A DNA stretch of 64,000 bases from NCBI GenBank assembly GCA_038215615.1, contig JBBQQR010000004.1, positions 73,888 through 137,887 of the forward strand, read 5' to 3'. The DNA is from Vulcanimicrobiales bacterium. Lineage in GTDB: Bacteria; Vulcanimicrobiota; Vulcanimicrobiia; Vulcanimicrobiales; Vulcanimicrobiaceae. Below are positions 25,530 through 63,996 of the stretch, one piece after another. Each line of letters begins with the position of its first letter. Position 1 is the stretch's first letter. Position numbers and translations under genes: made by a program. A model generated the notes under the pieces. The model saw only the letters and a list, made by a program, of their open reading frames with translations. It ran no database searches and was not told the DNA's origin.

Positions 25530-25537
25530 CCAGTGGT

Positions 25538-40917: not shown

Positions 40918-41994
40918 TCACTGCGCCGAGAGCGGTAGCCCGCCTCGATCCAATGGAATGGTGATGAGCAACTGCGTCACTTCGCTGTAATTGCGCACGC
41001 CCGAGGCGACGCGATTGGACTTCAGGTAATTATTGTACATCCGCCAGGAAAAGCGGGAGAAATCAATGTTGACGAAGCGCGCGTTGCGTTGGCGCAGAGC
41101 TTCGAAATCTTGCCAGACTTCGGGCGCGAACATCTTGTGCGGATACTTTTGCAGCGGGGGCAGATACAAGAATACTTCGAGCCAGCCCGAGTACTGCGCA
41201 ACGGTGTCGGAATCGCGCATGCAGGTCAGCGCCGCGATGTAATTGGCTTCGTCCTCGCGATTGTAGCCGGCGACGTGACTCCATTCATGCGCTTGTGAAA
41301 ACGGGCGCTCAAACCACAAGAGATCGGGTGCGAGCTGAGTCTCGAGCGTGAACGGATTGATGAAGCCACTGGTGCCGTTCTTGTCCATGAAAAATCCGGC
41401 CAGCGTCGGTTTGGCTGCACCCACCTCGGGCGTCCAGCGATCGCCCAGCCGTTGCACCACCGGCAGCCATGCGTTGCGAAGGAGTTCGAACGCCAGCGCT
41501 TCACCGCGCGGGGCGTTATCGTTGAGCGCGTGCGCCGGGCGCGCGAGCCGGTTGAGTTCGGCAATGGCCCGGCCGCGCAGGGCGTCAACGTTGCCCGCCG
41601 TTAAGCGTGAACGGTCGTAGGCGACGCGACTCTGCAGCGGCGCGCGGTCGTAACCCCAGCCCCATCCGCCATAAAACCAGAGCGCATACATTCCCGCGAC
41701 TCCGGCAATCCCGAAAAGCATGCGCAGCATCGGCACACCGAAGCGTCCGCGCCGCATGCGTTCGATGTTGCGCCATATTTTGACGATCACCACGACCGCG
41801 CCGGCCGCGATCACCACGTCGCCGAGCGAAAACGGAAGCGCCGGCGTGAATGATCCCCAAAAGTTCTCCCACTTGGGATACCAGCCGTTGCTGAACGCGC
41901 TTTCGACCCACGCCGGCGACGGATGCCAGAGCGCGGCAAAGAGTCCCGCTACGATCAGCAGCGCGTCGGCGAAAAGTTGTACGCGGAGTCTTAG
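40918..41994 (-). CDS. DUF3810-like membrane zincin (non-canonical start inferred; first GTG at 41817)
   Basis: N-terminal [51 protein letters not shown]. Confidence 0.8.
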
Positions 41995-42380
41995 CGTTTG
42001 CTAAATTGGAAGCGCTTGCGGGCGCGTTTGCGGCCGTACTTCTTCGACTCTTTTTCGCGATCGTCGCGCGTCAAGAGGCCGGCTTTGCGCAAAATTTCGC
42101 GCAGTGATTCATCCATTTGCACCAGCGCGCGGGCGATGCCGTGCCGCAGCGCGCCGGCTTGGCCGGACGTGCCGCCGCCCTCGACCTTGACGTCGATGTT
42201 GAAGCGCGTCAGGCTTTGCGTGGCTTCGAGCGGCTGCTTCACGATTTGCTGCAGCGTCTGGCGAGTAAAATATTCTTCGAGCGGGCGTTTGTTGACGGTG
42301 ATCTTGCCTTCGCCCAGCGCGAGTCTCACGCGCGCGACGGAACGTTTACGCCGTCCAGTCCCTAGGAAGTTATCGTTCAA
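41991..42380 (-). CDS. rpsI: 30S ribosomal protein S9
   Basis: [31 protein letters not shown] overlap with rplM. Confidence 0.98.
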
Positions 42381-42802
42381 GGCAGCTCCTGCGGTTTTTG
42401 CGCTTCGTGCGAATGCGTCGCACCGGTATACACTTTTAAACGGCCTAGGCGGACGTCGCGCAATCTATTGGTGGGCAGCATGCCGCGCACCGCGCGTTCG
42501 ATCAAGCGTTCCGGATGTTTGTCCATCAGGTCGCGCGCGGTCTGCAGTTTCAGGCCGCCGGGATAACCGCTGTGGCGGTAATACACTTTTTGGTCCCACT
42601 TGTTGCCGCCCAGCTCGACCTTCTCGGCGTTGAGCACGATCACGAAATCGCCGTCATCGATGTGCGGCGTCCAGGTCGGCTTGTGTTTGCCCGCAAGGAC
42701 GCGCGAAATACGCACGGCGAGAGTGCCGAGACGCTGGCCCGCGGCGTCGACGATGTACCAATCGTGCTTCGTCTCCGCGGTCTTCTGCTGGTACGTGCGC
42801 AT
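42377..42802 (-). CDS. rplM: 50S ribosomal protein L13
   Basis: [36 protein letters not shown]. Confidence 0.98.
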
Positions 42803-42936
42803 GGTCTTCCTTATAAGCGTGGGCAACCGACCTACTATACGCGGAGCCCGCCGCACCCGTCAAGCATGATTAAGGCCACGTCAGACTTTCGCATAGCCAA
42901 AAGGCGGCCGCCTGCCTCCATGAAAAAGAGATTAGA

Positions 42937-43767
42937 ATGAAGCATCGGATCGTCGGTGGTATAGCCGCTGCCTTTTTTGCCTGTTCGGCCCTGGCCATGG
43001 CCGTCGACAAGCCGGCCCCCAAGGGGCCTCCCATCGGGTCGATCTGCGACGAGTCCCTGAGGTCGATTGCCAATACCACCCACGCCCGGGCGACGCCCTG
43101 CGTCGTGACGCGCGGTCACATGGTCATCGAGACGATGTACTATCAGAATGCCTCGCGCGAAGGCGGAACGGCCCTGGCGGCCTACCCCGAGGCCACCTTC
43201 CGCGTGGGGGTCAGTCCGCGCCTCGAGCTGTTCGTGGACGCGCCCTCCGACATCGCCAAATCCGGAACTCATGGCGATGGCATCTTCTATTTCACCCACC
43301 CGGGCGTCGGTCTGAAAGCCTTGCTTTCAAGCAGCAGCACCTTCGCTTCGAGCCTCTCGCTCGAGACCCGGCCTCAGCTGCACGCGCTCGCCCACATGAG
43401 CCTGCTGCCGATGGCGGATGCCACGCTGACCGCTTCGTGGATGCCGCGCCGTTCAAACGTGATTATCACCGGGCAAGCGGGCGCATTCTGGTTCCAGCAG
43501 CGCGGAATGGGTCACGAGCAAAAAATGGCCGCGACGTTTGCGCTCGGGGTCACCGCGCCGATCATGCGCAAGACGTGGCTCACGCTGCAACTGCGGAGTT
43601 TTTCGATAGCCGCATTACATTCGTCGGCGCAAAGTTCGGGGACGCTAAGTCTGCAGCATGAAATCGGCCGTAACGTGTTGGCGAATGTGCAGCTCGGCAC
43701 GGCTTTTAACGCCGCCAGGCATTCCAAGGCGCATTATCTCGGCCTCGGTTTCACCATCCGGCGCTAA
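42937..43767 (+). CDS. Putative outer-membrane beta-barrel/transporter-like protein
   Basis: Signal peptide; PCVV..G..IE..Y; alternating amphipathic strands; terminal YLGLGFTIRR. Confidence 0.6.
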   Translation: MKHRIVGGIAAAFFACSALAMAVDKPAPKGPPIGSICDESLRSIANTTHARATPCVVTRGHMVIETMYYQNASREGGTALAAYPEATFRVGVSPRLELFVDAPSDIAKSGTHGDGIFYFTHPGVGLKALLSSSSTFASSLSLETRPQLHALAHMSLLPMADATLTASWMPRRSNVIITGQAGAFWFQQRGMGHEQKMAATFALGVTAPIMRKTWLTLQLRSFSIAALHSSAQSSGTLSLQHEIGRNVLANVQLGTAFNAARHSKAHYLGLGFTIRR

Positions 43768-44533
43768 TCGGCGGCTCTCCGAACGAGTCGAACCCGTCCG
43801 CGTAACGCACGCCCGCTAAATACAGACCTTGAGGCGGCGCTGTCATGCCCGTCGCGGAACGATCGAGCGACGCCAGCGCCGGCGCAATGCCGGCCGGATC
43901 GCGCTTTCCGGTTCCACACTCAACCAGCGTTCCAACGATGTTGCGGGCCATGCGGTGCAAATATCCGTCGGCGCGAATTTCAATGCGCAGCAAATCACCG
44001 TTGCGGCGAATATCGATCGCGCGAATCGTTCGCAGCGTCGGACCGCTCTCGGGGAGCATGCCGCAAAACGAGCGAAAATCGTGCTCGCCGATCAGCGGCG
44101 CCGCAGCCGCCTTCATCGCTGCGACGTCGAGCGGCGGCCAGACGTGACACACATGGCGCGCGTACAGCGGCGAGCGCTCGCGCCGGTTTAGAATAATGTA
44201 GACGTACGTGCGCTCCAGCGCCGAAAAACGCGCGGAGAAGCCGGCCGGCGCTATGCCGGCATCGCGTATGGAAAGATCGGGGGGCAATTCGGTATTCGCT
44301 GCGAGCGTCAAGCGCTCGAACGGAAACGACGCCGCGGTTCTTAGCGAAACAACCTGTCCGGTCGCATGAACGCCCGTGTCAGTGCGGCCCGCCCCCGTGA
44401 CTTTCACGGTGTTTGCAAAGAGGGTTGAAAAAACTCGCTCGAGTTCGCCCGCGATCGTGCGCAGCTCGGGTTGAAATTGGAAGCCGGAAAAAGCAGAGCC
44501 GTCGTACTCGACGACGGCTCTGATAGTCGTTAG
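43751..44533 (-). CDS. truA: tRNA pseudouridine(38-40) synthase (non-canonical start inferred)
   Basis: IRAVVEYDGSAFSGFQFQ, AGRTDTGVHA, FSARFSA, GEHDF, YLHRMARNIVG, TAPPQGLYL. Confidence 0.95.
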   Translation of the reverse strand, partial: LTTIRAVVEYDGSAFSGFQFQPELRTIAGELERVFSTLFANTVKVTGAGRTDTGVHATGQVVSLRTAASFPFERLTLAANTELPPDLSIRDAGIAPAGFSARFSALERTYVYIILNRRERSPLYARHVCHVWPPLDVAAMKAAAAPLIGEHDFRSFCGMLPESGPTLRTIRAIDIRRNGDLLRIEIRADGYLHRMARNIVGTLVECGTGKRDPAGIAPALASLDRSATGMTAPPQGLYLAGVRYADGFDSFGEPPISAGW

Positions 44534-44961
44534 GCTGCGCGGCGCGGGACCTGGCGTTTCTCGTCCAGATCCAGCAAGTCGGCCCAGGTCGTTACGTCGG
44601 TCCGGTCCAGCGCCACTTGGTTGCGCAGGCCCAGGAAGTATGTCTTCGACTCGCCCTCGGGCTCGTGACTCACGCATTGCCGGTTCCACTGCTCGATTTG
44701 AGCGGGCGTCTTTTTGTCGACGAACTGCTTGGCGTAGGCATCGATCTCCGCATCGCTCTTGGCGTTCTTGATGACGTTGTAGAATTCTTCACCGTTGATG
44801 CCGAGAAATTCGAATACCGCGTGGTCCATCGGGCAGTCGAAGTGGTATTCTCCGACGTTGCCGTGGGCTGTGGCTTTGCCCTTATCGAGGGCGCGACCCA
44901 GCTGCACGATGCCCAGGTATTTTTCGTGCACGCTGCGGGGGTACGTTTTTGTTAAATCCAT
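44530..44961 (-). CDS. DUF5069-like protein
   Basis: DLTKTYPRS..GR..DK..GEYHFDCPMD..FLGI..W.DLLDLDE. Confidence 0.8.
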   Translation of the reverse strand: MDLTKTYPRSVHEKYLGIVQLGRALDKGKATAHGNVGEYHFDCPMDHAVFEFLGINGEEFYNVIKNAKSDAEIDAYAKQFVDKKTPAQIEQWNRQCVSHEPEGESKTYFLGLRNQVALDRTDVTTWADLLDLDEKRQVPRRAA

Positions 44962-45028
44962 GGCCCTTATAACCCGACTTACTTAAAGTAGGTTTCAGGC
45001 AGAGCTCGCCGGCTGCTCCCTATGTGGC

Positions 45029-45895
45029 TTACTGCGAGAGAGGGACGGTGAAGACGTCGGGCGGGATCGAACGCGGATAGCTGATGCCGTCTAGGGTAAA
45101 GCGCCAGATGCCATGGTGCGTCGATATCCCGAAGAAACGCAGCGTCCCGTCGATTATCCCGTCGGTTAAGGTCCAGTAACCGCCGACGTCGCCAAAGTGC
45201 TGTTCCACTATCCCGTGAAAGCCGAAGGCGTCGCGAACCCCGTAGCGCAGCATGCAGAACTCTTGCGTCTGGACGTTGATGATGACATCGCTGAGCTGAT
45301 GCTGCGGCGCGCGATCGCGCGCGACCAGATGAAGGGCGTGTCCCGGACTGCCGTTCGGGCAGGCCTGGGCCCCGCGCTCCTCCAGTCGGTAGATCGTCGG
45401 ACCCATCACATGTATGGCCGCAATCTGGCGCAGGGACGATGGCTCTTGAGGCACGGGCGTGGCGCCGGCCGAAACTGGCTGCTCGACGTCTTGGTAGTTC
45501 AGCATGCCGTCACGCAAGGCACGATATGTACCATACCATGTCGGATCGAAAAACGAACGGGCGGTAACGTAACGCTTTCCATTCTCGTCGATAATCTCGG
45601 TTGCGTAGTCGTCCGTACGGTGGCGCAGTTGCCACGCACTCGGCCCGCTGCCGCTTCCGATCCCAAGCCAAACGAAATGATTTCTTACGAAAAGTTTCAC
45701 GGGCAGGCCATCGTCTTGCGAATGCAGCGTCGAACTTTCAAATGCCGGCTGCGCACGAGACGACGTTGCCTTCACGGCCGCGAGGTAGAGACTCTCGGCT
45801 GCGGAGGGCGGGTCCGCTTGCGCGCGCGTTGCGGAGATGAAAATAGCCGTTAACAGCAACGCGAACGCAACAAAGACGGCCGGGGTTCTCAGCAT
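45029..45895 (-). CDS. Hypothetical exported protein
   Basis: Signal peptide, 288-aa ORF, no recognised motif. Confidence 0.7.
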   Translation of the reverse strand: MLRTPAVFVAFALLLTAIFISATRAQADPPSAAESLYLAAVKATSSRAQPAFESSTLHSQDDGLPVKLFVRNHFVWLGIGSGSGPSAWQLRHRTDDYATEIIDENGKRYVTARSFFDPTWYGTYRALRDGMLNYQDVEQPVSAGATPVPQEPSSLRQIAAIHVMGPTIYRLEERGAQACPNGSPGHALHLVARDRAPQHQLSDVIINVQTQEFCMLRYGVRDAFGFHGIVEQHFGDVGGYWTLTDGIIDGTLRFFGISTHHGIWRFTLDGISYPRSIPPDVFTVPLSQ

Positions 45896-46027
45896 GTCTC
45901 CAATACGATTGCCGGCTCCGAAATGTTCCGCGAGTTAATGGCCCAGGGGAAAGGAAAGCGCGTCGACTGGCCAGGCACGTTCCGGTTCGTCAAACGTCCT
46001 GTCAAAAGCCGAGATGTATTTGCAATC

Positions 46028-47569
46028 TCAGCGAACGCCGCTCCCGTGCTGACGCTGGAGCGGAAAAAGTAAGACGTCTTTGATGCTCGGCTGATTGGTC
46101 AGCAGCATCACGAGGCGGTCCATCCCGATCCCGATGCCGGCCGTTGGCGGCATGCCGTACTCGAGCGCGCGCACGAAATCCCAATCGGGTTCGGGAATCT
46201 CTTCGTCGCCGGCCGAGCGTTGTTTGATTTGGCTTTCGAAGCGGGCGCGCTGATCATCGGGATCGTTGAGCTCGGTGAAGGCATTACTTATTTCGGCGTT
46301 GGCAATGAACAATTCGTACCGGTCGGTGATCTCGGAATCGTCTTGCCGCCGCTTGGCCAGCGGCGAGATCGCGACCGGGTAGCCGGTCACGAAGGTGGGC
46401 TCGTACAAGTGCGGCTCGGCGACGCGTTCGAAGATCTTGTCAAGCGCGTGCGCGTGCGAGGGCGACTCGGGCAAACCCAGCGCGGTGAGTATCGCCGCCG
46501 CGCCCTTGGGGTCGAGTAATTGCTCGCGCAGTTCCTTTCTTGAGCCTGTCCTGAGCCCCGCCGAAGGGCCATGCTCGCGAATCAGTTCCAAGTACTCGAT
46601 GCGCTTGAACGGACGCTTGAATGAGAGCGTCTTGCCGCCGGCTGGCACTTCGTCTTTGCCGCCCGTCATGACGTCGACCAGATGCGCGATTAGCGCTTCG
46701 TTAAACTCGCGCATGTCGTTGACGTCCCAGTACGCGGCGTACAGTTCGAGCATCGTGAATTCGGGATTGTGAACCGGATCGATGCCTTCGTTGCGGAAGA
46801 TGCGGCCGATCTCGTAAACCCGCTCGAAGCCGCCGACGATCAAGCGCTTGAGATTCAGTTCGGTCGCAATGCGCAACTGCATCATTTGGTCGAGCGCGTT
46901 GACGTGCGTCACGAAGGGGCGCGCGGCCGCGCCGCCGGCGACGTGCAGCAGCGTCGGTGTTTCGACTTCGTAGAAGCCTTGCGCGTCGATGAAGCGTCGC
47001 GTTTCGGCGAGAATCTTGCTGCGTGCGAAAAACACCTCGCGCACTTCGGGATTCACGATCAAATCCACGTAGCGCTGGCGGTAACGCTTCTCAACGTCGG
47101 TCAGCCCATGCCACTTGTCGGGCAGCGGATACATCGCCTTAGCGAGCACGTCGAACTTGAGCACATGCAGCGAGAGCTCGCCTTTTTGCGATCTGAACAT
47201 GTAGCCGTGCACGCCGACGATGTCGCCGATGTCGAGCACCGTCCAATCGGCAAATTTCTCGTCGCCGACTTCGTCGCGGCGCACGTAGAGCTGGAGCTTG
47301 CTGGTGCGGTCCGCGAGATCGGCAAAGGCGGTCTTGCCGTGCGGCCGCTGCGACATCAAGCGGCCGGCGATCGACCAGTTCTCGCTCTCGGCTTTTTCGC
47401 CGGTAGACAGAAAATCGTACTTGGCGAGCAGCTCGCCGGCGTTGGTATCGACGGCGTAACGCGTTTGCGCGAACGGGTCCGCTCCGTGCGAACGCAAAAC
47501 GGCCAGATTTTCACGTCTGGCCGCTACGAGTGCTTCTTCCGTCTTGCCGAGTTCGCGGGAGTCCGTGCT
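46028..47569 (-). CDS. lysS: Lysine--tRNA ligase, class II (true start uncertain; first TTG at 47497)
   Basis: PLPDKWHGL, RYRQRYVDL, GGAAARPF, FRNEG, HNPEFT, YGMPPTAGIGIG, VLLFP. Confidence 0.97.
   Translation of the reverse strand, partial: STDSRELGKTEEALVAARRENLAVLRSHGADPFAQTRYAVDTNAGELLAKYDFLSTGEKAESENWSIAGRLMSQRPHGKTAFADLADRTSKLQLYVRRDEVGDEKFADWTVLDIGDIVGVHGYMFRSQKGELSLHVLKFDVLAKAMYPLPDKWHGLTDVEKRYRQRYVDLIVNPEVREVFFARSKILAETRRFIDAQGFYEVETPTLLHVAGGAAARPFVTHVNALDQMMQLRIATELNLKRLIVGGFERVYEIGRIFRNEGIDPVHNPEFTMLELYAAYWDVNDMREFNEALIAHLVDVMTGGKDEVPAGGKTLSFKRPFKRIEYLELIREHGPSAGLRTGSRKELREQLLDPKGAAAILTALGLPESPSHAHALDKIFERVAEPHLYEPTFVTGYPVAISPLAKRRQDDSEITDRYELFIANAEISNAFTELNDPDDQRARFESQIKQRSAGDEEIPEPDWDFVRALEYGMPPTAGIGIGMDRLVMLLTNQPSIKDVLLFPLQRQHGSGVR
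46541..46568 (-). repeat. Short repeat family copy inside lysS
   Basis: Minus strand CCCTTCGGCGGGGCTCAGGACAGGCTCA, translated PSAGLRTGS. Confidence 0.75.
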
Positions 47570-48082
47570 CTAACTCGCTTTCTTCGCGGCCTTCTTCGCC
47601 GGCGTTCCCCGCCGGATGCTTTCAATCTTGTATTTCACGATGCCCCGCGGCGTGGCCACGTCGACCGTCTCGCCCTTCTTGTGGCCGATGAGCGCGCGTC
47701 CCAACGGGGATTCGTTGCTGATGCGCTGATTCACGGGGTCGGCCTCGGCCGAACCCACGATCCAGAACTCATGGCCGGAGTTCGATTTGACGTCCTTGAC
47801 CTTGACCGTGGCGCCCAGGTGCACTTCGTCGGCCGAATAGTCCGACTCGTCGATCAGACGAGCGTTGCGAACCATCGACTCCAACTTCATGATGCGGCCT
47901 TCGATGAACGCCTGCTCCTGCTTGGCGTCTTCGTACTCCGCGTTTTCACTCAGGTCGCCGAACTCTTTGGCCTGCCGGATCCGGTTATTGACCTCACGGC
48001 GATGAACGCTCTTGAGCTCGTCGAGCTCGTGCTCCATCTTTTCCAGGCCCTCTTTGGTGAGGACGACTTCTTTATCGTTCAT
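47570..48082 (-). CDS. greA: Transcription elongation factor GreA
   Basis: LTKEG, GDLSENAEY, ISNESPLG. Confidence 0.98.
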   Translation of the reverse strand: MNDKEVVLTKEGLEKMEHELDELKSVHRREVNNRIRQAKEFGDLSENAEYEDAKQEQAFIEGRIMKLESMVRNARLIDESDYSADEVHLGATVKVKDVKSNSGHEFWIVGSAEADPVNQRISNESPLGRALIGHKKGETVDVATPRGIVKYKIESIRRGTPAKKAAKKAS

Positions 48083-48142
48083 ACTTCCCCGGCGGCCAGT
48101 GATAAGGAAAGCGCCCCCATGCAGGGCGCCAGCGCCGTTGGT

Positions 48143-49516: not shown

Positions 49517-49564
49517 GCGCCCATCGGGCGCTGCTCAGGGTCGTTCGACAAGCTCACGATGACA
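49506..49564 (+). repeat. Composite repeat copy at the junction of two genes
   Basis: CCCTTCG..GCTCAGGG followed by TCGTTCGACAAGCTCACGATGACA. Confidence 0.75.
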
Positions 49565-50462
49565 ATGCAATAACCCGTGGCTTTAGATGCAATTCGTGGA
49601 GCACGCGCTCGTAGTCTTCGGGCGTAACGTCGGCCCACTTCTTCCCAAGCAACGCCAGCAGCGCAGCTTCGACGACGTTGGTTCCAAAGGAGCGCCCTTG
49701 AAAGTCGGGCGTCGTCGTGATGAGCATCTTGACGCCGCGCGTGCGCAGCTCGTCGACGTCTTTCTCCGTCACCGTGTTCGTGAGGACGATTTTTCCGTTC
49801 AAGTCGTCCGGCATGAACTGACGCATGAAATGATAGTCGCCCGCGATAATTTCCGCGTCACGATAATACTGCGGATATTTGGGCTTCGGCGGCTGGTCTT
49901 GCTTCTTGCCGGTCGGATAGAAAAACTGAAACGGGAGTTTGCACGCATCCGGCAGATACTTTTCGGCCATCGCTTCGAACTCGTGCAAGCCTTTGACCGG
50001 CTTGTCGAGATCGAGCGCGAAGATGAAATCGCCGAAGAGCACGTCGGCGCCGGCATCCACGAGCGCCTGGGCCATGCCGAAGCGGTCGAGCGCGCTGACC
50101 ATCAGCACTTTCTTGCCCTTGAGGTCGATGCCGAGTTCTTCTTGCATGAACCGTACCGCTTCACGCTCGAGCGTATTCTTCAGGCCGCTGCCGTCCACGA
50201 CCGGCGTCACCTTTGCAGCTTCGAGCAGACGCAAGCCGTCACGCAGCGCAAACCGGTGCTTGCCGGCGTAGAGATACACATCGATTCCGCCCAGGCCTAT
50301 CGCGTCGACCTTACCGTCCAACTCTTTAACTTTCGCAATTGCTTCGTCGAGCTTGCCATCGGTGCCGACGCGCGAAATCTCAAAATTTTCGCCGAGCAGG
50401 TTTACTTTCGCGCTGTGATCGCGCGCGCTCGATCCGAGCGACACCGAAACGACTTTTTTCAT
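49554..50462 (-). CDS. Conserved protein commonly auto-annotated as quinate 5-dehydrogenase (function unknown)
   Basis: MKKVVSVSLGSS.RD; DAIGLGGID; TPVVDGSGLKNTLE; GRSFGTNVVEA; ATGA overlap. Confidence 0.75.
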   Translation of the reverse strand: MKKVVSVSLGSSARDHSAKVNLLGENFEISRVGTDGKLDEAIAKVKELDGKVDAIGLGGIDVYLYAGKHRFALRDGLRLLEAAKVTPVVDGSGLKNTLEREAVRFMQEELGIDLKGKKVLMVSALDRFGMAQALVDAGADVLFGDFIFALDLDKPVKGLHEFEAMAEKYLPDACKLPFQFFYPTGKKQDQPPKPKYPQYYRDAEIIAGDYHFMRQFMPDDLNGKIVLTNTVTEKDVDELRTRGVKMLITTTPDFQGRSFGTNVVEAALLALLGKKWADVTPEDYERVLHELHLKPRVIALSS

Positions 50463-52025: not shown

Positions 52026-52034
52026 GTGCTGCTA

Positions 52035-53324: not shown

Positions 53325-53331
53325 GACGACA
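53298..53331 (+). repeat. 34-bp direct repeat of 49531..49564
   Basis: CTGCTCGGGGTCGTTCGACAAGCTCACGACGACA, 2 mismatches. Confidence 0.85.
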
Positions 53332-53333
53332 TA

Positions 53334-54332: not shown

Positions 54333-54373
54333 AGCGACCGTATTCTAGCACCCCTTGCGCTTCCCGGCTATTC

Positions 54374-55084: not shown

Positions 55085-57216
55085 AGCGGGCTTGCGCCGG
55101 CCAACTTCGCTACTTCATGAAGCGCGTAGAGCATCCACACTGTTTGCTCACCGTTGCCCGGTCCGTTGAACACATTTGAGTTCGGGGGCGGAACGTTTAC
55201 TTGCGATGCCTCGAAGACCCGCGGCTCGTGATTGAGCTGCTGCTCGTCCTGAACAAACGCCAGCGTCTGCTCGACCTGTCTCCAATCGCCCTTCTGGGCG
55301 AAGAACAACATCTGCCAGGCAAGGACCTTGCCCGACGTGATCGGCGCCGGATCGATGTCGGCGGTAAACCCGATGCTGATGACGCGATGCCCGTTCCAGA
55401 CAAAACTCCCGTACCGCATCAATGCCGCGATGGTTTGATCGTAGATCTTCGGGTCTGTGCCTTCCCAGCCGGCGGCGGTCGGGCCGAAACTAAATTCTGA
55501 AAGTCCCGGATAGATCTGCGTCATGTTTTTGTCTTCGAACATTTCCGCATAGACGCTGTGCCCATCCAGTTTCCACGTCATGCGGCGCGCTATGGCGCGC
55601 TCAAGGGTAGTCTTGTCATTCTCCCATCGCATTGCGTGCGCGGCATCGCCCCGTGACCTTGCCACGCGGATCATCTCGCGCAGCGACTGAGCAACAAAAG
55701 ACTGCGTAAAACTATCGTACGTGTCCCAAAACCGTTCTTCGCGATAATGCTCGAGATGCAAATTTCGCACCAGACCGAAACTCGGCGTGAAATACGGCTG
55801 GGCCATCGTTGCATCCATGAGCGCGGCGACTTGGCCGTACGTCGAGTTGACGAATGACGGCGCGTTTGCGGCGCGTGCGTAGAGCGCCCATGCCAGAATC
55901 ACGCCGGATTGCCCGTCCATTTGGTCGGTCATCTCAGGCGCTCCGGAGGTGAGCACGTAATGCGGAACCCGCGCTTGTCCTGCCTGCTTGGTCGCGTTGA
56001 GCGTGTATTGAAGAACATCTTGAGCTCGTTCAAAGTCGCCCGTAATCAGCCACAACTTGACCAGCGCAGCGCCGGTGCGCGCGAAGTAACTCGGCGCGTA
56101 CGCGTTCGTGAGCGACTCCAAGAAAAACCCCGGCGGGTGACTTCCGCCTTGTCGAGATTGAACGTCCTTATAATTGAAAGAATAAAAATTTCGCCACCAC
56201 TCCGACTCGAGCTCACCTTTCACAGCGGCCCGATCCGCGGAAGAGGACGGGGATGAAGCAGCACCTGGCGGTTTGGGCGCCGGACCGCTTACCGGAAAGT
56301 CATCAACGTAGGTATAGGACCCGGCAGCGTAATCGTACGGCATCGACGCCACGATGAATGCAACCTCGTTGTTGGGATTCAGCGCGACCGCAGGCGGCTG
56401 CAGCAATCTTCCCGAGATGGGTTGCCAAACCGGAATCGTCTTGCCGCGCGAATCAAATCGCGAGAACCACACCTCGTTGTTGCCTCCCCGGACGAAGGCG
56501 AAGAGCCTGTTTCCGTTAGGATCAAAGATGAGCGCCGGTGCGGAGACGGTGTTCCCCGATATGTTGGCAAACGTTTTATGAACCGAGCCGTCGGCGTTTA
56601 ACGTCCCAAACCAGAGCGTGTCGTTCGACGAGCGCACCAACACCTGTATCTCTTGCAACGAGGAATCCCACGCCGCGGCCGGCGACGACGGCGTCGTCCC
56701 CGGCACCGAAGTCCAGTCCTTGGAGAAACTTCCGTCCGAGTTGAGCGTTGCAAACCACAGCCGGTTATCCGCCGAACGGCCGAGGATGTCGATTTTCTTT
56801 GAGACCGGATTCCACACCAAGGCCGGCGGCGACGCCAGAATCCCGGAGAGCTCCTTCCAGTTCTCATACACACTGCCGTCGCTATTCAGCGCGGCGAACC
56901 AAAGATTGTTATCGGGAGAGAGCACGAGGATGTCGATCTTGTGAAGCACCGGATCCCACACGAGTGCCGGGGGCAGCGGCCGGCTGCCGGCGATGTTGAT
57001 GAACGGCTGAGTGATGACCTTATTGTGATCGACCGCGGCAAACCACAATTCGCCGCTCGAACCGGCGACAACCACGTAGACCTTGTTGGTATCCGGACTC
57101 CAAACCGCCGCCGGAGCTGAGAGAGTTCGGCCGCTCAGTACCGTCCATTTCGCCAGAACGGTGCCGGGCGTTACACACAATACGCACAACAAGAGGGCAG
57201 CCGGTAAGAACCGCAC
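55081..57216 (-). CDS. Exported protein: lectin-like beta-propeller repeats + putative six-hairpin glycosidase domain
   Basis: Signal peptide; about six ~48-aa repeats (SG..PA.VW.P..DN.LWF..L.SDGS); helical C-domain with QMDGQ and EERFWDTY. Confidence 0.6.
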   Translation of the reverse strand: MRFLPAALLLCVLCVTPGTVLAKWTVLSGRTLSAPAAVWSPDTNKVYVVVAGSSGELWFAAVDHNKVITQPFINIAGSRPLPPALVWDPVLHKIDILVLSPDNNLWFAALNSDGSVYENWKELSGILASPPALVWNPVSKKIDILGRSADNRLWFATLNSDGSFSKDWTSVPGTTPSSPAAAWDSSLQEIQVLVRSSNDTLWFGTLNADGSVHKTFANISGNTVSAPALIFDPNGNRLFAFVRGGNNEVWFSRFDSRGKTIPVWQPISGRLLQPPAVALNPNNEVAFIVASMPYDYAAGSYTYVDDFPVSGPAPKPPGAASSPSSSADRAAVKGELESEWWRNFYSFNYKDVQSRQGGSHPPGFFLESLTNAYAPSYFARTGAALVKLWLITGDFERAQDVLQYTLNATKQAGQARVPHYVLTSGAPEMTDQMDGQSGVILAWALYARAANAPSFVNSTYGQVAALMDATMAQPYFTPSFGLVRNLHLEHYREERFWDTYDSFTQSFVAQSLREMIRVARSRGDAAHAMRWENDKTTLERAIARRMTWKLDGHSVYAEMFEDKNMTQIYPGLSEFSFGPTAAGWEGTDPKIYDQTIAALMRYGSFVWNGHRVISIGFTADIDPAPITSGKVLAWQMLFFAQKGDWRQVEQTLAFVQDEQQLNHEPRVFEASQVNVPPPNSNVFNGPGNGEQTVWMLYALHEVAKLAGASPL

Positions 57217-57220
57217 GCGC

Positions 57221-57988
57221 CTATTTTCCGGAATGAAATCGACGCAAGCCGTACAGACTCAAGTGCGGATTCACCGCGTGGATGATCTTGGTGTGACGCG
57301 CAACCACTTCTGCCATTCCGCCCGTCGCGACGACCTTCGCGTCGGTACCGAGTTCCGCTCGGATGCGAGCGACCAGCGCCTCTGTTTGGCCGACAAAACC
57401 GTAAACGATTCCCGACTGCAGCGCGGAGATCGTATCCGTCCCGAGCGCTTTGCCGGGAGCTTCCAGCGCGATCTGCGGGAGTTTCGCCGTACGTTCCACC
57501 AGCGCGTCGATGGAAATGCCGATGCCGGGGGCGATCGCGACGCCGAGATAGAGCCCTTGCGGATCGATGGCCATGAACACCGTTGCGGTACCATAGCTAA
57601 TCACGATGAGCGGCGCGCCGTACAGTTCTTGCGCGCCGATCGCCGCCGCAACCAGATCCGCTCCGACTTCGCCCGGGCGATCCGTACCGATGCGCATGAG
57701 CGTTTGCCGGTGCGCTTTGAAAAAGACCGGCAGGCTGTTGAAATAGCGCGAGCACGCTTCTTCCAGCGTTTGATCGAGATTGGGAACGACGCTCGCAACC
57801 ACGATCGCGTCGACGTCCGCCGGACGGAGCGGAGTGGTTCCGAAGAGCTGCACAAAAAGCGCGCCGAGTTCGTCGGCCGTGCGTTTGGGGTCGGTGCGAA
57901 TACGCCAAGCCTGCACGAGCTCCGGTTGCCCGGCCGCGAAACAGCCGAGCTTGGTTTCAGTATTGCCGACGTCAACCGTTAATAACAA
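57221..57988 (-). CDS. coaX: Type III pantothenate kinase
   Basis: LTVDVGNT, ASVVP, VGAD, GTAT, IAPG, ATGG. Confidence 0.95.
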   Translation of the reverse strand: MLLTVDVGNTETKLGCFAAGQPELVQAWRIRTDPKRTADELGALFVQLFGTTPLRPADVDAIVVASVVPNLDQTLEEACSRYFNSLPVFFKAHRQTLMRIGTDRPGEVGADLVAAAIGAQELYGAPLIVISYGTATVFMAIDPQGLYLGVAIAPGIGISIDALVERTAKLPQIALEAPGKALGTDTISALQSGIVYGFVGQTEALVARIRAELGTDAKVVATGGMAEVVARHTKIIHAVNPHLSLYGLRRFHSGK

Positions 57989-58007
57989 TTCAATTCAATC
58001 GTAGGTG

Positions 58008-59225
58008 CTACGCACCGGAGTCCTGAGCGGGGTCGAAGGGAACATCGTTCAGAATGCAATCGAGCAGCCTGGCGGCCAAAACCTCTTTCGAAGCGGCCCC
58101 TAGGTCGCGCCGGCCATCGTTTCCCCACAACACGGTCAATGCGTTATTTTGCGCGCCGAAGCCGCGCCCGCCCGCAACGTCGTTCACGACGATCGCGTCG
58201 AGATGTTTACGCGTCATCTTTTCGCGCGCGTTGGTTTCATGATTCTCCGTTTCGGCGGCGAATCCGATAACGATCCCGCGGTGCTTTTCACGACCGATCG
58301 CCGCAAGCACGTCAGGCGTGCGCACCATGCGCACGTCGAGATCGCCTTCGCCCTTTTTCGTCTTTTGCGGTGACGAGGTCTCCGGACGCCAATCGGAGAC
58401 GGCGGCGGTTGCGATGATCAGATCCGCGCTCTTAGCCGGCCCGACCGCCGCAGCGTACATGTCCTGCGCCGAGACGACGTCGAGAACTTCCACACCCGCG
58501 GGCGCCGCCAGATGCGTCGGGCCAAGAATGAGCGTCACCTCCGCGCCACGCAGCACGGCTTCGCGCGCGAGCGCAATGCCGGTCGCGCCCGTTGACGGAT
58601 TGCTGACGAATCGAACGGGATCGAAGGCTTCGCGCGTGGGCCCGCCCGTGATCAGCACGCGCTTTCCTTTCAACGATTGGGTGCGCGTAAGAATCGTTTC
58701 CAGCGCTTGCAAGATCGCATCCTCGGATGCGAGGCGGCCGATGCCGGTCTCGCGTTCCGCCAAAAAACCGCTCTCGGGTTCGGCGAATTCGTAGCCGCGC
58801 TCGCGCAGCGTGCGCAGATTGGCTTGCGTCGCCGGATCGTTGTACATTGCGTCGTTCATTGCCGGCGCGATCAGTACCGGGATGCGGGCCGCGAGCAGCG
58901 CGCTCGTCACCAAGTCATCAGCGATACCTTGCACGAGCTTTGCGATGACGTCAGCTGTAGCCGGCGCAACGATCGCAACCTGCGCTTCGCGCACCAGGCG
59001 GATGTGCGGAATCGACTCGGGCGCGTCCCAAAGCGACGTATAGACTTGGCGGCCGGTCAATGCAGCGAAGGTCAGCGGACCGACGAATTCTTCAGCTGCC
59101 GCGGTCATGGCGACGTCAACGATAGCCCCCCGCTGCACTAACGCGCTGGTCAATGCCGCGGATTTATAGGCGGCGATGCCGCCGGTGATGCAGAGCAGAA
59201 TGCGCTTGCCGGAAAAAGCGCTCAT
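58008..59225 (-). CDS. coaBC: Phosphopantothenoylcysteine decarboxylase/ligase
   Basis: TGGIAAYK, APATA, PAMN, GPTRE..DPVRF, AAVSD, GFAAET. Confidence 0.97.
   Translation of the reverse strand: MSAFSGKRILLCITGGIAAYKSAALTSALVQRGAIVDVAMTAAAEEFVGPLTFAALTGRQVYTSLWDAPESIPHIRLVREAQVAIVAPATADVIAKLVQGIADDLVTSALLAARIPVLIAPAMNDAMYNDPATQANLRTLRERGYEFAEPESGFLAERETGIGRLASEDAILQALETILTRTQSLKGKRVLITGGPTREAFDPVRFVSNPSTGATGIALAREAVLRGAEVTLILGPTHLAAPAGVEVLDVVSAQDMYAAAVGPAKSADLIIATAAVSDWRPETSSPQKTKKGEGDLDVRMVRTPDVLAAIGREKHRGIVIGFAAETENHETNAREKMTRKHLDAIVVNDVAGGRGFGAQNNALTVLWGNDGRRDLGAASKEVLAARLLDCILNDVPFDPAQDSGA
58020..58040 (-). repeat. Short repeat family copy at the 3' end of coaBC
   Basis: Minus strand CCCTTCGACCCCGCTCAGGAC, translated PFDPAQD. 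Confidence 0.75.
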
Positions 59226-60049
59226 GGCCGGATCCAAAGGTTATCGAGCAGGCGCGTGCGCCCAAAGCGCGCCGCGCCGATCAGGAAAGCCGGCGCGCGA
59301 AGCGCTTGCAGGCGCGAAAACGTGCGCGCGTCGACCAGGTTGAGGTACTCCAAACGCGCGCGCGGGCTCAAGACGCCGGCCGCCGCTTCGCGAGCCTCCT
59401 CGACGGTTTTTCCGGCCCGGATCTCTTTGAGCATCGTCTGCAACGCTGCGTATAACGTCGGCGCCGCGGCGCGTTCTTCCCCGGAGAGATAGGCGTTGCG
59501 GCTCGACATCGCGAGGCCGTCGGGTTCGCGAACGGTCTCGACGATCTCCACGCGCGTGGTGAAGTTCAAATCCTCGACGAGTTTCGTCAGAACCGCAGCC
59601 TGCTGTGCATCCTTCTGTCCCAAGAAGAGCACGTCCGGCCGCACGATGTTGAGCAGTTTCGCCACGACCGTCGCCACGCCGCGAAAGTGCGCCGGACGCG
59701 CCGCGCCTTCGAAGCGCGTGCCGAGCTTGCCGACGTCAACGAACGTCGTGAAATCCGGCGGATAAATCACGTCTTTCTCCGGCGCGAAGAGCACATCGAC
59801 ACCGGCCCGGGCGAGCTTATCGGTGTCGCTCTCCAAGTCGCGCGGATAGCGTTCGAAGTCTTCTTGCGGTCCAAACTGCATCGGGTTGACGAACAAGCTC
59901 ACCGCAACCGACGTACACGAACCGCGCGCCGCTTCGACCAGCCGCAAGTGTCCGGCGTGCAGCGCGCCCATCGTTGGAACGAAGCCGAGCGGCCGCGTGA
60001 GTTTTTCGAGCTCGGCGCGCACGGGTGCCAGCTCGCTTTCAACCTTCAT
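59222..60049 (-). CDS. panC: Pantoate--beta-alanine ligase
   Basis: VPTMGALHAGH, FVNPMQF, YPR, HFRGVATVV, GQKDAQQ, SSRN, RLLDN. Confidence 0.97.
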   Translation of the reverse strand: MKVESELAPVRAELEKLTRPLGFVPTMGALHAGHLRLVEAARGSCTSVAVSLFVNPMQFGPQEDFERYPRDLESDTDKLARAGVDVLFAPEKDVIYPPDFTTFVDVGKLGTRFEGAARPAHFRGVATVVAKLLNIVRPDVLFLGQKDAQQAAVLTKLVEDLNFTTRVEIVETVREPDGLAMSSRNAYLSGEERAAAPTLYAALQTMLKEIRAGKTVEEAREAAAGVLSPRARLEYLNLVDARTFSRLQALRAPAFLIGAARFGRTRLLDNLWIRP

Positions 60050-60056
60050 CTTCAAG

Positions 60057-60362
60057 TTAGGAGCTGCGCGTAACCCTCAGTACGGTGCGTCCGACCTGGA
60101 ACGGCGTACCGGGCTCGATGCGCTGCTCCCCGCGAACGCGCCGCTCGTTGACGCGCGTCCCGTTGCGGCTCTCGAGATCGCTCAAAAGCAAGCTGCCGGC
60201 ATCGCTGCGCAGGCGCGCATGGCGGCGCGAGATGTAACGGTCGAGGGTAATGCAGGCGCCGGCCAAGGTCTCGTCCCGGCCGATCACGATCTCGTCTTCG
60301 AAGGGCCAGGTCTTCCCGTCAAGCGGCCCGCTCAAGACCTCCAGAACAAAGGTCGAGTGCAT
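60057..60362 (-). CDS. Stand-alone FHA domain protein
   Basis: IGR..ISRRHA..DLESRNGTRVN. Confidence 0.92.
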   Translation of the reverse strand: MHSTFVLEVLSGPLDGKTWPFEDEIVIGRDETLAGACITLDRYISRRHARLRSDAGSLLLSDLESRNGTRVNERRVRGEQRIEPGTPFQVGRTVLRVTRSS

Positions 60363-60414
60363 GAGTGCTAACTATTCTCTGAAAGGGGACGATACTCTCT
60401 AGGGCGGTGAGCTG

Positions 60415-60420
60415 TATAAT
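60415..60420 (+). promoter_or_regulatory. Sigma70 -10 element, probable leaderless promoter
   Basis: Perfect TATAAT 7 nt upstream of GTG at 60428; no SD between. Confidence 0.55.
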
Positions 60421-60427
60421 GGGCACG

Positions 60428-60634
60428 GTGAACGAGCGAATCGACGAGCTGCTCCACCTGATTGAGGTGGAACCCGACGCGCTCCGCGAGGCGGAATTTG
60501 CGCAGGTTGCGTCCATTCTGGAGACGATGGTCGGCAAGACCGTGACCTCGGCCGAGCTCGAAGACACGCGGATCGTCATCACGACCGCCGACGGCAATAA
60601 GTACTTTTTCTACGGTTTTCTGGGCTTAGACTAG
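60428..60634 (+). CDS. Small acidic hypothetical protein
   Basis: 68-aa ORF filling the gap between FHA and PilZ genes. Confidence 0.65.
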   Translation: MNERIDELLHLIEVEPDALREAEFAQVASILETMVGKTVTSAELEDTRIVITTADGNKYFFYGFLGLD

Positions 60635-61002
60635 GTTCGCGCGCGCTGCTGCAGCTCGTGGATGAACTCCACGATCTCGCTTTGGTCGGGCGCCGCAATT
60701 TGCGTGAATGCGACGCCGTGCGCATACTGTTGACGCGACGCATCAAAAAACGAAAGCACTACGCGTCCGCGCACCATCATTTCGCGCTCGCCCCCGGGCA
60801 GCGAAAAACGCATGGTGATGTTTTGGCCGGCACTCAGATCGCCTGTGGTGATCACGCGCATGCCGCCCCCGCTCAAATCCACGGCGCTGCCCTCGAGAGC
60901 CGCGTCGTTTCCCGATACGGTCACGCCCACCGGAAAATCAACGGCGGCGCGGAAAAAGCGGCGCTGCTGCGGGCCCGAGCCCGAGGGTTGCTCTGTGCTC
61001 AC
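60631..61002 (-). CDS. PilZ domain (c-di-GMP-binding) protein
   Basis: QRRFFR (RxxxR) and DLSGGG (DxSxxG) motifs; start uncertain. Confidence 0.92.
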   Translation of the reverse strand: MSTEQPSGSGPQQRRFFRAAVDFPVGVTVSGNDAALEGSAVDLSGGGMRVITTGDLSAGQNITMRFSLPGGEREMMVRGRVVLSFFDASRQQYAHGVAFTQIAAPDQSEIVEFIHELQQRART

Positions 61003-61048
61003 GTGTAGTCGGCTTCTGTATGGAAGCTGAGCGCCCTGCACTCCAATG

Positions 61049-62272
61049 TTAGGAGCTCGTCAACGCGCGCGCGGCGAAAAGCGCGCCCAGAATCGCGTGC
61101 TCGGTGACGATTCCACCTTGCAAATAGACTTCAAACGGTTCGCGCATCGGCGCGTCGCACGAGAGTTCGATCGTGGCTCCGCTGATGAAGGAACCGCCCG
61201 ACATAATGACCGGCTCGGCATAACCCGGCACGGGGCCTGGTTCGGGGCGAAAGCGCGCGTTTACGGGCATAGCCGATTGCAGCCCTTGCGCAAACGCGCG
61301 CAGCCGCGCGGCCGACCCCAGGCGGATCGCCTGCACGATATCGGTTCGCGTTTCGCCGGCGCGAGGGTCGACCTCGTAGCCCAGTTCGCTAAAAAGTGCA
61401 GCGGCAAAGTCTAAACCGCGCAAGCATTGTTCGACAATCAGGGGAGCCACGAACAATCCGTGGATGAAGGCACGGCCAAAGCCGAGCGTCGGGCCGACGC
61501 CGTCTTTGAGTCCGGGCGCATACAAGCGATCGGCGACGCACGCGATCAGGTCGCTGCGGCCGACAATGTACGCTCCACCCGGCGCGAGCGATCCGCCCAG
61601 ATTCTTGATGAGCGATCCAATCGCGAGGTCGGCGCCCACGTGCGTCGGTTCGCGGTCTTCCACGAGCTCGCCGTAACAATTATCGACGACGATCGCCACG
61701 TCGGGACGTTTCTTTTTTATCGCCGCGAAGAGCGGTTCGCACTCCCCAATCGAAAGCGATCGCCGTGGCGCATAGCCGCGCGAACGTTGCACAAATACGG
61801 CCGCCACGTCGCGGTCCTCGAGCGCTTTCTCAATGTCATCGGCTTCCTGATACTTCATCCCCTGACTTACCAACGAGTTCGGCGCGTCAGCGATCGCATT
61901 GCGCAGGGTGTCGTAGGGTCTACCCGTCGCGCTGAGCAGCATTTTACCGTGCGGCACACATGCCGCCAGCGCGGTGACGATCGCGTGCGTGCCGCTGACG
62001 AGCGAAAGCCGCGCGAGAGCTCGCTGCGCGCCGAAAATGCGCGCGAGCAGCGCTTCATATTTAGCCCGTGCCGGATCGTCGTAACCGTAACCGAACGAGC
62101 CGGCAAAATCGCTCTCCGCGACCCCTTCTTCCAAGAATGCCGCGAGCACGTTGGTCTTTACACGCGCTTGCGCGTCGTAGCTGATCTCGGAAACGGTCGC
62201 TTCGGCGCGCAGCGCTGCTTCCCGGACCGGACCCGCGAAACCGAAGCGCTCGCAGAGCAGCTGCACGTTCAC
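61049..62272 (-). CDS. Methionine gamma-lyase family / aluminium-resistance (YnbB-like) PLP enzyme
   Basis: GYGYDD, VSGTHA, GRPYDTL, QRSRGY, VDNCYGE, GSLIKNLGG, TIELSCD, YLQGG; GTGA overlap. Confidence 0.93.
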   Translation of the reverse strand: MNVQLLCERFGFAGPVREAALRAEATVSEISYDAQARVKTNVLAAFLEEGVAESDFAGSFGYGYDDPARAKYEALLARIFGAQRALARLSLVSGTHAIVTALAACVPHGKMLLSATGRPYDTLRNAIADAPNSLVSQGMKYQEADDIEKALEDRDVAAVFVQRSRGYAPRRSLSIGECEPLFAAIKKKRPDVAIVVDNCYGELVEDREPTHVGADLAIGSLIKNLGGSLAPGGAYIVGRSDLIACVADRLYAPGLKDGVGPTLGFGRAFIHGLFVAPLIVEQCLRGLDFAAALFSELGYEVDPRAGETRTDIVQAIRLGSAARLRAFAQGLQSAMPVNARFRPEPGPVPGYAEPVIMSGGSFISGATIELSCDAPMREPFEVYLQGGIVTEHAILGALFAARALTSS

Positions 62273-63390
62273 GGCAACGCCGCCTCGTGCCGTTCGTAAG
62301 CGCGCACGAACGGCAGGTACACCACGGTGGCGAGCGCGATATTGAAGAGCACCAGTATGACGGCCCGCCAATCCAGCGTCGCAAAATAAACCGCGGCCGG
62401 AGCGGGCACGATGCCGGGAATATAAGTGTACGCGCGCGCGACGACATTATTCGCCGTGGCGAAGTATGCGATCGTCGCCGTCATCAGCGGTACGCCGATA
62501 AACGGCACGACGAGAAACGGGTTGGCAACGATCGGCAATCCGAAGAGCAGAGGCTCGTTGATGTTGCATAGAGCCGGACCAACGGTTGCGCGGGCAAGCA
62601 GCCGCAGCCGCGGAGCCCGGCTGAAGAGCAGTAAAAATGCGATCGGCAGCGTCGCGCCTGCGCCGCCGGGGAAGACAAAAAGAAAAAGCGAGACGACCAC
62701 GATGTGCGGCAGCGGCGCATGGTGTAAGAACGCATCGGTGTTTTGGCGCTGCAGCGTCAGGTACAGCGGCGTGATCACCGCGGCGAGTACTGCCGGTCCG
62801 TGCACGCCGACAGTCCACAGCAGCGTTTCGAGCGCGACCACCAGCATCAGAGCGCCGTACGAATCGCCGAGTCTTCCCAGTGGGTGAAGCGCCGCAGCCG
62901 CTGCGTTCGCGGGCGATGCGTGCAAGAGAAAAGCCGTCATGAGCAACGCGAGAACGATCGCGACGCAGCCTACTTCTCCGGCTTTGCCGGCGCGCCGGCC
63001 GGCAGCGGCGGCGCCCGCGACGATCAGTGCTAGGCCTATGGCCAAGAATAGTCCGGTTCCACCGACGAGGTTCAGATATGCCGGCGGATGCCAAAGATCG
63101 ATCGGTTGCGGCAGCGCCAACAAAAAAGCCGCACATGTTGCAGTAACCAGCAGCGCCCGCGGCAGACGCAAATGCAGAGCTAGCCGGTACGACAGAATGG
63201 CGGCCAGTGCCGCAGACATGACGCCGAACCCTGGCAGTTCGGCGGCGACCAGGCGTTGCAAAAACGAACCGCTCCCAAGGAGCATGAATACCGGAATAGC
63301 CGCCAGGAGCGCAAAGAAGCTGCGCGGCAAGCTTTCGCGCACGGCGATCAGTGCGGGCAGATCGCCGAAGGCGCGAAGGGACGCTAGCAG
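62269..63390 (-). CDS. PTS cellobiose/lactose-family EIIC-like membrane protein (CTG start inferred; first GTG at 63342)
   Basis: LWTVGVHG, GGAGATL, NINEPLLFGLPIVANP, YLPFV.AYE. Confidence 0.88.
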   Translation of the reverse strand: MLASLRAFGDLPALIAVRESLPRSFFALLAAIPVFMLLGSGSFLQRLVAAELPGFGVMSAALAAILSYRLALHLRLPRALLVTATCAAFLLALPQPIDLWHPPAYLNLVGGTGLFLAIGLALIVAGAAAAGRRAGKAGEVGCVAIVLALLMTAFLLHASPANAAAAALHPLGRLGDSYGALMLVVALETLLWTVGVHGPAVLAAVITPLYLTLQRQNTDAFLHHAPLPHIVVVSLFLFVFPGGAGATLPIAFLLLFSRAPRLRLLARATVGPALCNINEPLLFGLPIVANPFLVVPFIGVPLMTATIAYFATANNVVARAYTYIPGIVPAPAAVYFATLDWRAVILVLFNIALATVVYLPFVRAYERHEAALP

Positions 63391-63996
63391 TTAGATCTTA
63401 CGGACGACGGCTTCGACGCGTCCGACGATGGTGACATCGTTCGAGAAGATTGGCGCCATCTGCGGATTCTCCGGCTGCAAACGAATGCGTCCGTCTTCCT
63501 TATAGAAGCGCTTGACGGTCGCTTCGTCGTCGACCATGGCCACCACGATCTCACCATTCTCGGCGCTAGGCTGGGGCCGGACTAAAATCAAATCGCCGTC
63601 CAAGATTGCGGCGCCGACCATTGAGTCACCCTGAACGCGCAACATGAACGCGTTGGACGCCCGCGGAGCGAACGACGCCGGCAGCACGAATTCGCCTTCG
63701 ACATTCTCCTGGGCCGTAATCGGAACGCCGGCGGCAACCCGCCCGATGATGGGCATGACAACGCTGTCCGGTGGGTTTCCGCTCGGGGCTTCTCTGCGCA
63801 GCGCGCGCGGCTTCGTAGGGTCCCGGGTGATGTAGCCCCGGCGCTCGAGCGTCTTGAGGTGGGCGTGAATCGTAGACGAGGACGACAGCCCGACCCGCTC
63901 GCCGATCTCACGGACCGACGGCGGATAGCCCCGCTCGGCCCGAAACTCTTCGATGACCTCGAGGATGCGCCGCTGGCGCTCGGTTGCTCCCTCCAT
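63391..63996 (-). CDS. lexA: SOS transcriptional repressor LexA
   Basis: TERQ..IL, GYPPSVREIG, VAAG cleavage site, GDSM, ATVKRF. Confidence 0.97.
   Translation of the reverse strand: MEGATERQRRILEVIEEFRAERGYPPSVREIGERVGLSSSSTIHAHLKTLERRGYITRDPTKPRALRREAPSGNPPDSVVMPIIGRVAAGVPITAQENVEGEFVLPASFAPRASNAFMLRVQGDSMVGAAILDGDLILVRPQPSAENGEIVVAMVDDEATVKRFYKEDGRIRLQPENPQMAPIFSNDVTIVGRVEAVVRKI

Follow-up and report, generated by a model that had tools for sequence, protein, structure and literature searches.

The 64,000-nucleotide stretch of a Vulcanimicrobiales genome analysed here (the window) contains four genes, truA, a DUF3810 gene, lysS and a PTS EIIC gene, that have no usable ATG, GTG or TTG at their N-terminus and whose reading frames begin at, or directly behind, the stop codon of the preceding gene. 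The observation is real, conserved and genome-wide, extending well beyond the window in the source genome (G000; 2.21 Mb, 54 contigs, 61% G+C, 100% complete). Translation of such genes very probably initiates at near-cognate codons. We hypothesize that the main mechanism is re-initiation by ribosomes that have just terminated on the upstream gene, combined with an evolutionary step-down from canonical to weaker start codons, a reading to which we give a probability of about 70%. The first-pass annotation of the window had described five junctions of this kind, including that of tauE, and the sequence at all five is as it stated. The genes concerned, their upstream partners and an initiation factor gene discussed below are as follows.

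40918..41994, minus strand: DUF3810 gene; proposed start CTA at 41994-41992, in a CTAA overlap with the rpsI TAA; the alternative is the ACG one codon before
41991..42380, minus strand: rpsI (S9; PF00380), upstream partner of the DUF3810 gene
43751..44533, minus strand: truA; proposed start CTA at 44533-44531, overlapping the TAA of the DUF5069 gene
44530..44961, minus strand: DUF5069 gene (PF16798), upstream partner of truA
46028..47566, minus strand: lysS; proposed start ACG at 47566-47564, three bases past the greA TAG
47570..48082, minus strand: greA (PF03449/PF01272), upstream partner of lysS
62269..63390, minus strand: PTS EIIC gene; proposed start CTG at 63390-63388, immediately after the lexA TAA
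63391..63996, minus strand: lexA (PF00717/PF01726), upstream partner of the EIIC gene
24807..25541, minus strand: tauE; GTA overlapping the relA TAA, with a TTG at 25529 that can serve instead
11594..11878, minus strand: divergent IF1 paralogue with a basic N-terminal extension, the sole IF1 found in G000

The next downstream canonical codon lies 59 codons into the DUF3810 gene, 41 into truA, 24 into lysS and 16 (a GTG) into the EIIC gene. The lysS frame continues from the greA TAG through AGC ACG (47569), and in the EIIC gene CTG follows TAA directly (63390). tauE, where GTAA at 25541 is followed by TTG four codons on, is not a forced case. Position 3 of TIGR00071 falls two residues after the truA CTA; in the DUF3810 gene, position 1 of the Pfam model corresponds to residue 34 and the first GTG to residue 60. 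The first 16 codons of the EIIC gene lack profile support, NCBIfam matching the C-terminal half alone. The earlier statement that truA has no canonical start holds for its N-terminus but passed over an in-frame GTG 52 codons upstream (44689), inside the DUF5069 gene, in a frame open for 85 codons upstream. The closest truA relatives are from Ca. Rubrimentiphilum, Ca. Baltobacteraceae and Vulcanimicrobiota.

Assembly error is excluded as a source of these codons, which are common to up to ten independent genomes and match contigs of run X1. The three junctions covered there (DUF3810, truA and lysS) are identical in the Logan contigs; X1 is possibly the source sample itself, so this agreement tests assembly only. 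Within the genus, truA begins with CTA in 6/9 genomes and TTA in 3/9, every time overlapping the DUF5069 stop. Its second codon is ACG in seven of the nine and ACA in two, the NTA of the overlap being kept throughout. ACG, which the first-pass annotation had pointed out within one or two codons in three cases, is thus not a shared start and fits lysS only. Across 78 of 80 family loci (2 partial loci were dropped), a canonical codon lies within -5 to +2 of the truA start in 5 and farther upstream, at scattered offsets (-6 to -65), in 54; in the remaining 19 the frame holds no canonical codon, whether close to the start or farther up. Changes upstream of the CTA hit wobble positions of the DUF5069 gene and those downstream wobble positions of truA (14/2/3 vs 3/2/11, seven genus rows). 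The ACG of lysS is kept in 4/4 genus loci, with 2- or 3-base spacers to the greA stop, and in G003 with a 5-base spacer; ATG or GTG stands one codon on in 4/4 other rows (8 rows from 17 loci). For the DUF3810 gene the count is limited to the genus, the N-terminal alignment beyond it being too loose to call: all 4 loci have CTA, and a TAG closes the frame three codons before it. For tauE, the one relative compared, G003, carries TTG near the GTA column. The EIIC junction is TAA-CTG in 9/9 genus genomes having a match. In the genus the EIIC protein is N-terminally shortened and its gene abuts lexA (window 62269-63996), other relatives having longer N-termini; the match in G008 is broken into two pieces.

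Comparable junctions occur throughout the genome. With a coding model trained on G000, 891 close co-directional gene pairs were examined, in 537 of which the second frame is open at -4. These 537 have ATG, GTG or TTG at -4 in 295 cases, at -1 in 97, elsewhere within 30 bases in 111 and not at all in 34. Once short upstream genes are included, 46/992 junctions lack a canonical start within 30 bases, yet show coding signal from the junction onward. A curated set of 25 sites comprises 20 picked from the strongest outside the window and 5 window genes. NCBIfam models matched 18 of these 25 at 1e-25, and in 17 the model (positions 1-6) starts ahead of the next canonical codon downstream, usually only a few residues from the odd codon. 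In smc, model position 1 falls on residue 6 and the first canonical codon on residue 60; in pth the corresponding residues are 22 and 44. Pfam adds N-terminal support for ltaE, a HAD enzyme, a GT2 gene and DUF3810, bringing the profile-supported total to 21 genes, plus infC; smc, pth, prfA, tmk, coaE and purA belong to the 21. No in-frame canonical codon lies upstream in 19 of the 21. In G000, pyrC has such an upstream codon. Two curated candidates found no N-terminal support in the profile scans. If translation began at the first canonical codon, SMC, Tmk, CoaE and PurA would presumably lose their nucleotide-binding loops. Pth would lose its GNPG...H stretch, which aligns to solved Pth structures. 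The codons used across the set are CTG, ATA, ATT, ATC, GTA, CTA, TTA, GTC and ACG. Among the automatic hits, secA and several others were dropped by eye for a canonical start 30-60 bases downstream, and prfB is a known case of frameshifting. An automatic count of orthologue start switches against G003, G015 and G049 was too noisy to use, with internal anchors and 'other' codons as frequent as near-cognate ones.

In several genes the odd codon occupies exactly the alignment column of a canonical start in relatives. The start of smc is ATA in 10/10 genus genomes, and the same column in 20/20 others holds ATG (10), GTG (8) or TTG (2). coaE has GTC in 10/10 genus genomes, six bases after GGAGG (9) or GGAGAG (1); the 20 others are canonical at the same column (17) or within two codons (2), with CTG in 1. 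For prfA, which encodes release factor 1 (RF1; loci L269 and L403-L411, in G000 at C14:34931) and lies in frame right after the rpmE stop, the stop is followed by CTG in 9/10 genus genomes and by ATG in the tenth (G009), while a canonical codon lies within seven codons in 20/20 others. At one tmk column, six of ten genus genomes have CTG and three GTG, with ATA one codon up in the last; 13 of 20 others are canonical, and family f3 has CTG in 5/6. purA has ATC in 9/10 genus genomes, with an in-frame TGA two codons earlier in 7. Among pth loci, selected by profile score, no canonical codon lies within five codons in 8/9 family loci and 1/1 f3 locus, against 1/20 loci of other classes. In the eight genes tested, the stretch that a gene finder would drop varies mainly at third codon positions, as coding sequence does (smc 30/35 variable columns, prfA 21/24). 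These genes were chosen for a missing start in G000 and show fixation in the genus, not rate.

Because about twenty or more core genes have no canonical start and most likely begin at near-cognate codons beside an upstream stop, gene finders cut the proteins short. The practical cost is that core enzymes of an abundant, uncultured soil lineage are shortened and filed as truncated. Pth is a case in point: the 11 closest database proteins (P0002-P0012) have 165-170 residues and begin downstream of the GNPG motif; it is the GTA start that has led annotation to these short entries. Of the best 120 database matches in the wider family, 95 have a full-looking N-terminus, so canonical pth starts remain common there.

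The rate of such junctions was compared between genomes by running the same pipeline on 400-kb sets (four sets for G000, covering 80 of 86 20-kb pieces) and counting forced junctions without an upstream canonical codon. G000 has 25 in 761 close co-directional pairs, and its class relatives have 5/168 (G003), 4/160 (G015) and 3/174 (G049). The four controls, E. coli (0/93), pSymB (1/129) and G062 (1/121) and G106 (0/134) from two other classes of the phylum, sum to 2/477, significantly below G000 (p=3e-4). G015 and G049, which belong to other genera of the class (7/334), do not differ from G000 (p=0.19). The trait thus looks class-wide, with additional fixed cases in the genus; G062, G106 and the pth loci are what places its edge within the phylum. 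Genomes flagged as unpublished underlie none of the conclusions. Profile starts, genus conservation and this excess all bear out the proposal of the first-pass annotation that the lineage initiates at near-cognate junction codons, which we consider very probable.

Several features link the odd starts to translation of the upstream gene. Forced cases are more frequent among coupled than uncoupled genes (35/991 vs 13/721, p=0.02; at other thresholds 20 vs 6, p=0.03). Measured from the last base of the upstream stop, the 25 curated sites, which were picked at junctions, fall between -16 and +10, and 16 sit at -4. The initial picture of starts that overlap or abut the upstream stop is too narrow: coaE (GTC) and purA (ATC) follow Shine-Dalgarno (SD)-like motifs several codons ahead of the upstream stop. 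SD-like signal (5-9 base spacing tested) was detected at 10/25 curated sites, including those of coaE, pth, hemB and smc, compared with 37% and 34% at canonical overlaps and 18% at uncoupled gene ends; the other 15, among them prfA, tmk, EIIC and DUF3810, have little or none. Upstream genes show more ribosomal-protein-like codon use than those at canonical overlaps (46 vs 426 pairs, p=0.002; a small effect). Partners include S1, L31, S9 and GreA, in the pairs rpsA-coaE, rpmE-prfA, rpsI-DUF3810 and greA-lysS; the partner of pth is presumably L25 (rplY-pth).

We propose that an ordinary initiator tRNA reads the near-cognate starts, giving fMet initiation, and that the terminating ribosome or its 30S subunit, already placed at the junction, may restart on the weak codon, in some cases aided by an SD motif inside the upstream gene. 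A restart of a few percent behind a strongly translated gene would supply enough of a low-abundance enzyme such as Pth, RF1 or CoaE. Because many upstream partners are strongly translated and such a restart would suffice, mutations from ATG, GTG or TTG to a weaker codon may have been tolerated or favoured, and then fixed in the genus. These neighbourhoods point to low output, not to the efficient re-initiation first suggested. In the available text of the reports concerned, non-canonical codons yield 0.01-2% of AUG in E. coli (10.1101/063800) and about 10-30% in S. aureus when strong SDs are present (PMC13009471). At the rpmE-prfA junction, RF1 synthesis may be tied to how efficiently translation terminates.

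A number of points weigh against this mechanism. Profile support is missing for about half of the 46 automatic candidates, and the coupled enrichment is modest, one of three thresholds being not significant (28/991 vs 12/721, p=0.08). Related genomes are not independent, so the p-values overstate, and controls are few. At NTAA and NTAG overlaps the stop itself dictates the TA, so the exact codon is not independently conserved; DUF3810, purA, leuB and tmk each have a second near-cognate codon within four codons. SD energies were computed with an assumed anti-SD, as the 16S 3' end was not assembled. For coaE and purA, initiation could be de novo and guided by the SD. Top-decile upstream genes are as many at canonical -1 overlaps (19% vs 17%), and several partners (rnc, GH125, lexA) are not known as abundant proteins. 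In E. coli, an excess of IF3 inhibits re-initiation, above all without an SD, as far as the accessible part of that study goes (PMC2268962); re-initiation is therefore not known to escape IF3.

The strongest competing explanation, which we nevertheless regard as unlikely, is a class-wide relaxation of the initiation machinery itself, through weak IF3 proofreading or a modified IF1, that would make near-cognate codons efficient everywhere, coupled or not. It would account for nine codon types, including CTA, TTA and GTC, which each differ from AUG at two positions, and for their occurrence in prfA, lysS, pth, tmk and the like, for the SD-led coaE and purA and for a few uncoupled candidates. Two factors also carry unusual features: IF1 has a basic N-terminal extension throughout the parsed class copies, and IF3 has a C-terminal extension and a Tyr in place of the His of family f5. 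When altered components were looked for in G000 among IF3, initiator tRNA, rsmD and ksgA, all were present and ordinary-looking; no relaxed machinery was found behind the loosened start-codon selection postulated in the first-pass annotation. The initiator tRNA (C3:82946) has the usual determinants: its first position is unpaired, and its anticodon stem carries three G-C pairs; ksgA and rsmD score above profile cut-offs and rsmB just under. IF3 is intact, and its gene infC keeps an ATA start behind GGAG in 6/6 family genomes, which suggests that IF3 still senses weak starts, in line with the infC-type autoregulation by IF3 described in the available text of PMC5472188. The His-to-Tyr exchange was rejected as a cause, the same Tyr being present in six other families (f4, f6, f7, f8, f10 and f12; 10 of 31 loci, including E. 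coli, were not parsed).

With respect to IF1, the interval between map and rpmJ in G000 (C6:107137-107191) clearly lacks the ordinary infA, leaving the divergent paralogue in the window. Its loss was ruled out as the cause, since G003 and G008 carry both copies, including an ordinary infA, yet share odd starts. In the class, IF1 has a 15-28 residue Arg/Lys-rich N-terminal extension, with ATG or TTG 15-28 codons before the usual N-terminus in 10/10 parsed copies; outside the class, the majority of IF1 frames leave no room for it. IF1 has been implicated in 70S re-initiation in the portions available of PMC12548453 and PMC5972666, and we treat the extension as a lead only. Several family genomes, two of them single-contig (G018 and G033), likewise showed only the lower-scoring IF1 copy. 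YciH/SUI1 was not found in our search, a result that is uninformative.

It is less probable still that these are genuine starts belonging to an ordinary, overlooked background of gene-dense, high-GC bacteria and not to a lineage trait. The similar rate in other genera of the class would fit, and the controls are small (400 kb each), one being a plasmid, with no actinobacterial, Deinococcus or Chloroflexota chromosome among them. Against it stand the near-empty counts in all four controls and the pth comparison, in which 9/10 class loci lack a nearby canonical start. Experimental surveys, judging from the accessible text, gave only four sites each in S. aureus (PMC13009471) and D. deserti (PMC2830850).

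Fusion to the upstream product, by stop readthrough in the in-frame cases or frameshifting at overlaps, with prfA as a case of RF1 autoregulation, is very improbable. The EIIC and prfA frames do run exactly in frame past the stop in 9/9 and 9/10 genus genomes, with C always the next base. A fusion would not explain why lysS keeps its ACG at varying distances (2, 3 or 5 bases) from the greA stop, why tmk swaps CTG and GTG at one column, why prfA has ATG in G009 or why relatives of smc and coaE are canonical at the same column. CTG after the stop in both in-frame cases is not needed for readthrough. TAG is the RF1-specific stop, but the stop ahead of prfA is TAA in 8/9. Least credible of all, and largely refuted, is the use of canonical starts farther up- or downstream or an assembly artefact, given the scattered or absent truA upstream codons, the DUF5069-type wobble pattern ahead of its CTA, the Pth stretch that a downstream start would cost and the recurrence of the codons in independent genomes and X1 contigs, although upstream codons do exist in 54/78 truA loci and in pyrC, and the EIIC GTG 16 codons in and the tauE TTG four codons in may be the true starts of those two genes alone.

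Returning to re-initiation on weak codons, termination-reinitiation coupling at ATGA and TGATG overlaps has been described (PMC6728339, PMC12548453, both as far as available). The odd codons here occupy the same or nearby positions as the canonical -4 and -1 starts, but the overlap codon is CTG, ATA, GTA, CTA or TTA (in ATAA, GTAA, CTGA, CTAA and TAA-CTG); ATAA, CTGA and 'non-canonical' are all absent from the main text of PMC6728339. The accessible part of PMC5472188 reports IF3-controlled non-canonical starts on single genes, namely infC (ATT/ATA/ATC) and Streptomyces sigR (GTC). Common to those and the present set are conservation of a near-cognate codon among relatives, the absence of a canonical codon at the homology-defined N-terminus, the use of GTC and ATA, the latter in infC itself, and, as proposed here, a codon weak for initiator tRNA that lowers output. 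In contrast, at least 21 genes of unrelated pathways are involved here, mostly operon-internal. The available text of two surveys lists infC, cvfC1, ccpN and citZ, all with extended SD motifs, for S. aureus (PMC13009471), and dnaA, rpsL, infC and Deide_03051 for D. deserti (PMC2830850). Like our set, they comprise conserved near-cognate starts in ordinary and core genes that annotation had missed. The present set is roughly five times as large although the genome is smaller, extends the codon list by GTA, CTA, TTA, GTC and ACG and, unlike the S. aureus sites, mostly lacks a pronounced SD; the earlier sets were shown experimentally, whereas this one is predicted from sequence.

The scale is larger and the codon range wider than in these described cases. 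The accessible portions of PMC13515050, a Synechocystis preprint (10.64898/2025.12.20.695498) and an IF1 preprint (10.64898/2026.06.26.734871) contain nothing comparable, and a literature search, in which subscription journals were mostly uncovered, found no paper on start codons in the phylum or on such a large set at junctions; supplements (of PMC6728339 and a 64-codon study) could list cases. In the textbook picture bacterial genes start with ATG, GTG or TTG and each genome has only a few exceptions, whereas here there are twenty or more, housekeeping genes and codons such as CTA, TTA and GTC among them, fixed across a genus. They offer natural test cases for whether re-initiating ribosomes face the same start-codon check as de novo initiation. 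A further, speculative extension is that in this class the choice of start codon acts as a graded dial throughout operons. Ribosomes that re-initiate might accept ACG and nearly every codon whose middle base is U, perhaps by way of the class-specific IF1 with its basic N-terminal tail, and the output of 1-2% of genes, including those for RF1, peptidyl-tRNA hydrolase, LysRS and SMC, might follow the IF3 level. If true, this would be a natural, genome-scale instance of re-initiation escaping start-codon proofreading.

Some further features were observed in passing. Pro/Lys-rich C-terminal extensions are present on IF3 of family f1 and on S13 of G000. A small zinc-ribbon-like open reading frame with paired CxxC motifs (window 11900-12170, minus strand) lies upstream of the IF1 paralogue, and G000 encodes a selenocysteine tRNA at C36:9883-9976.

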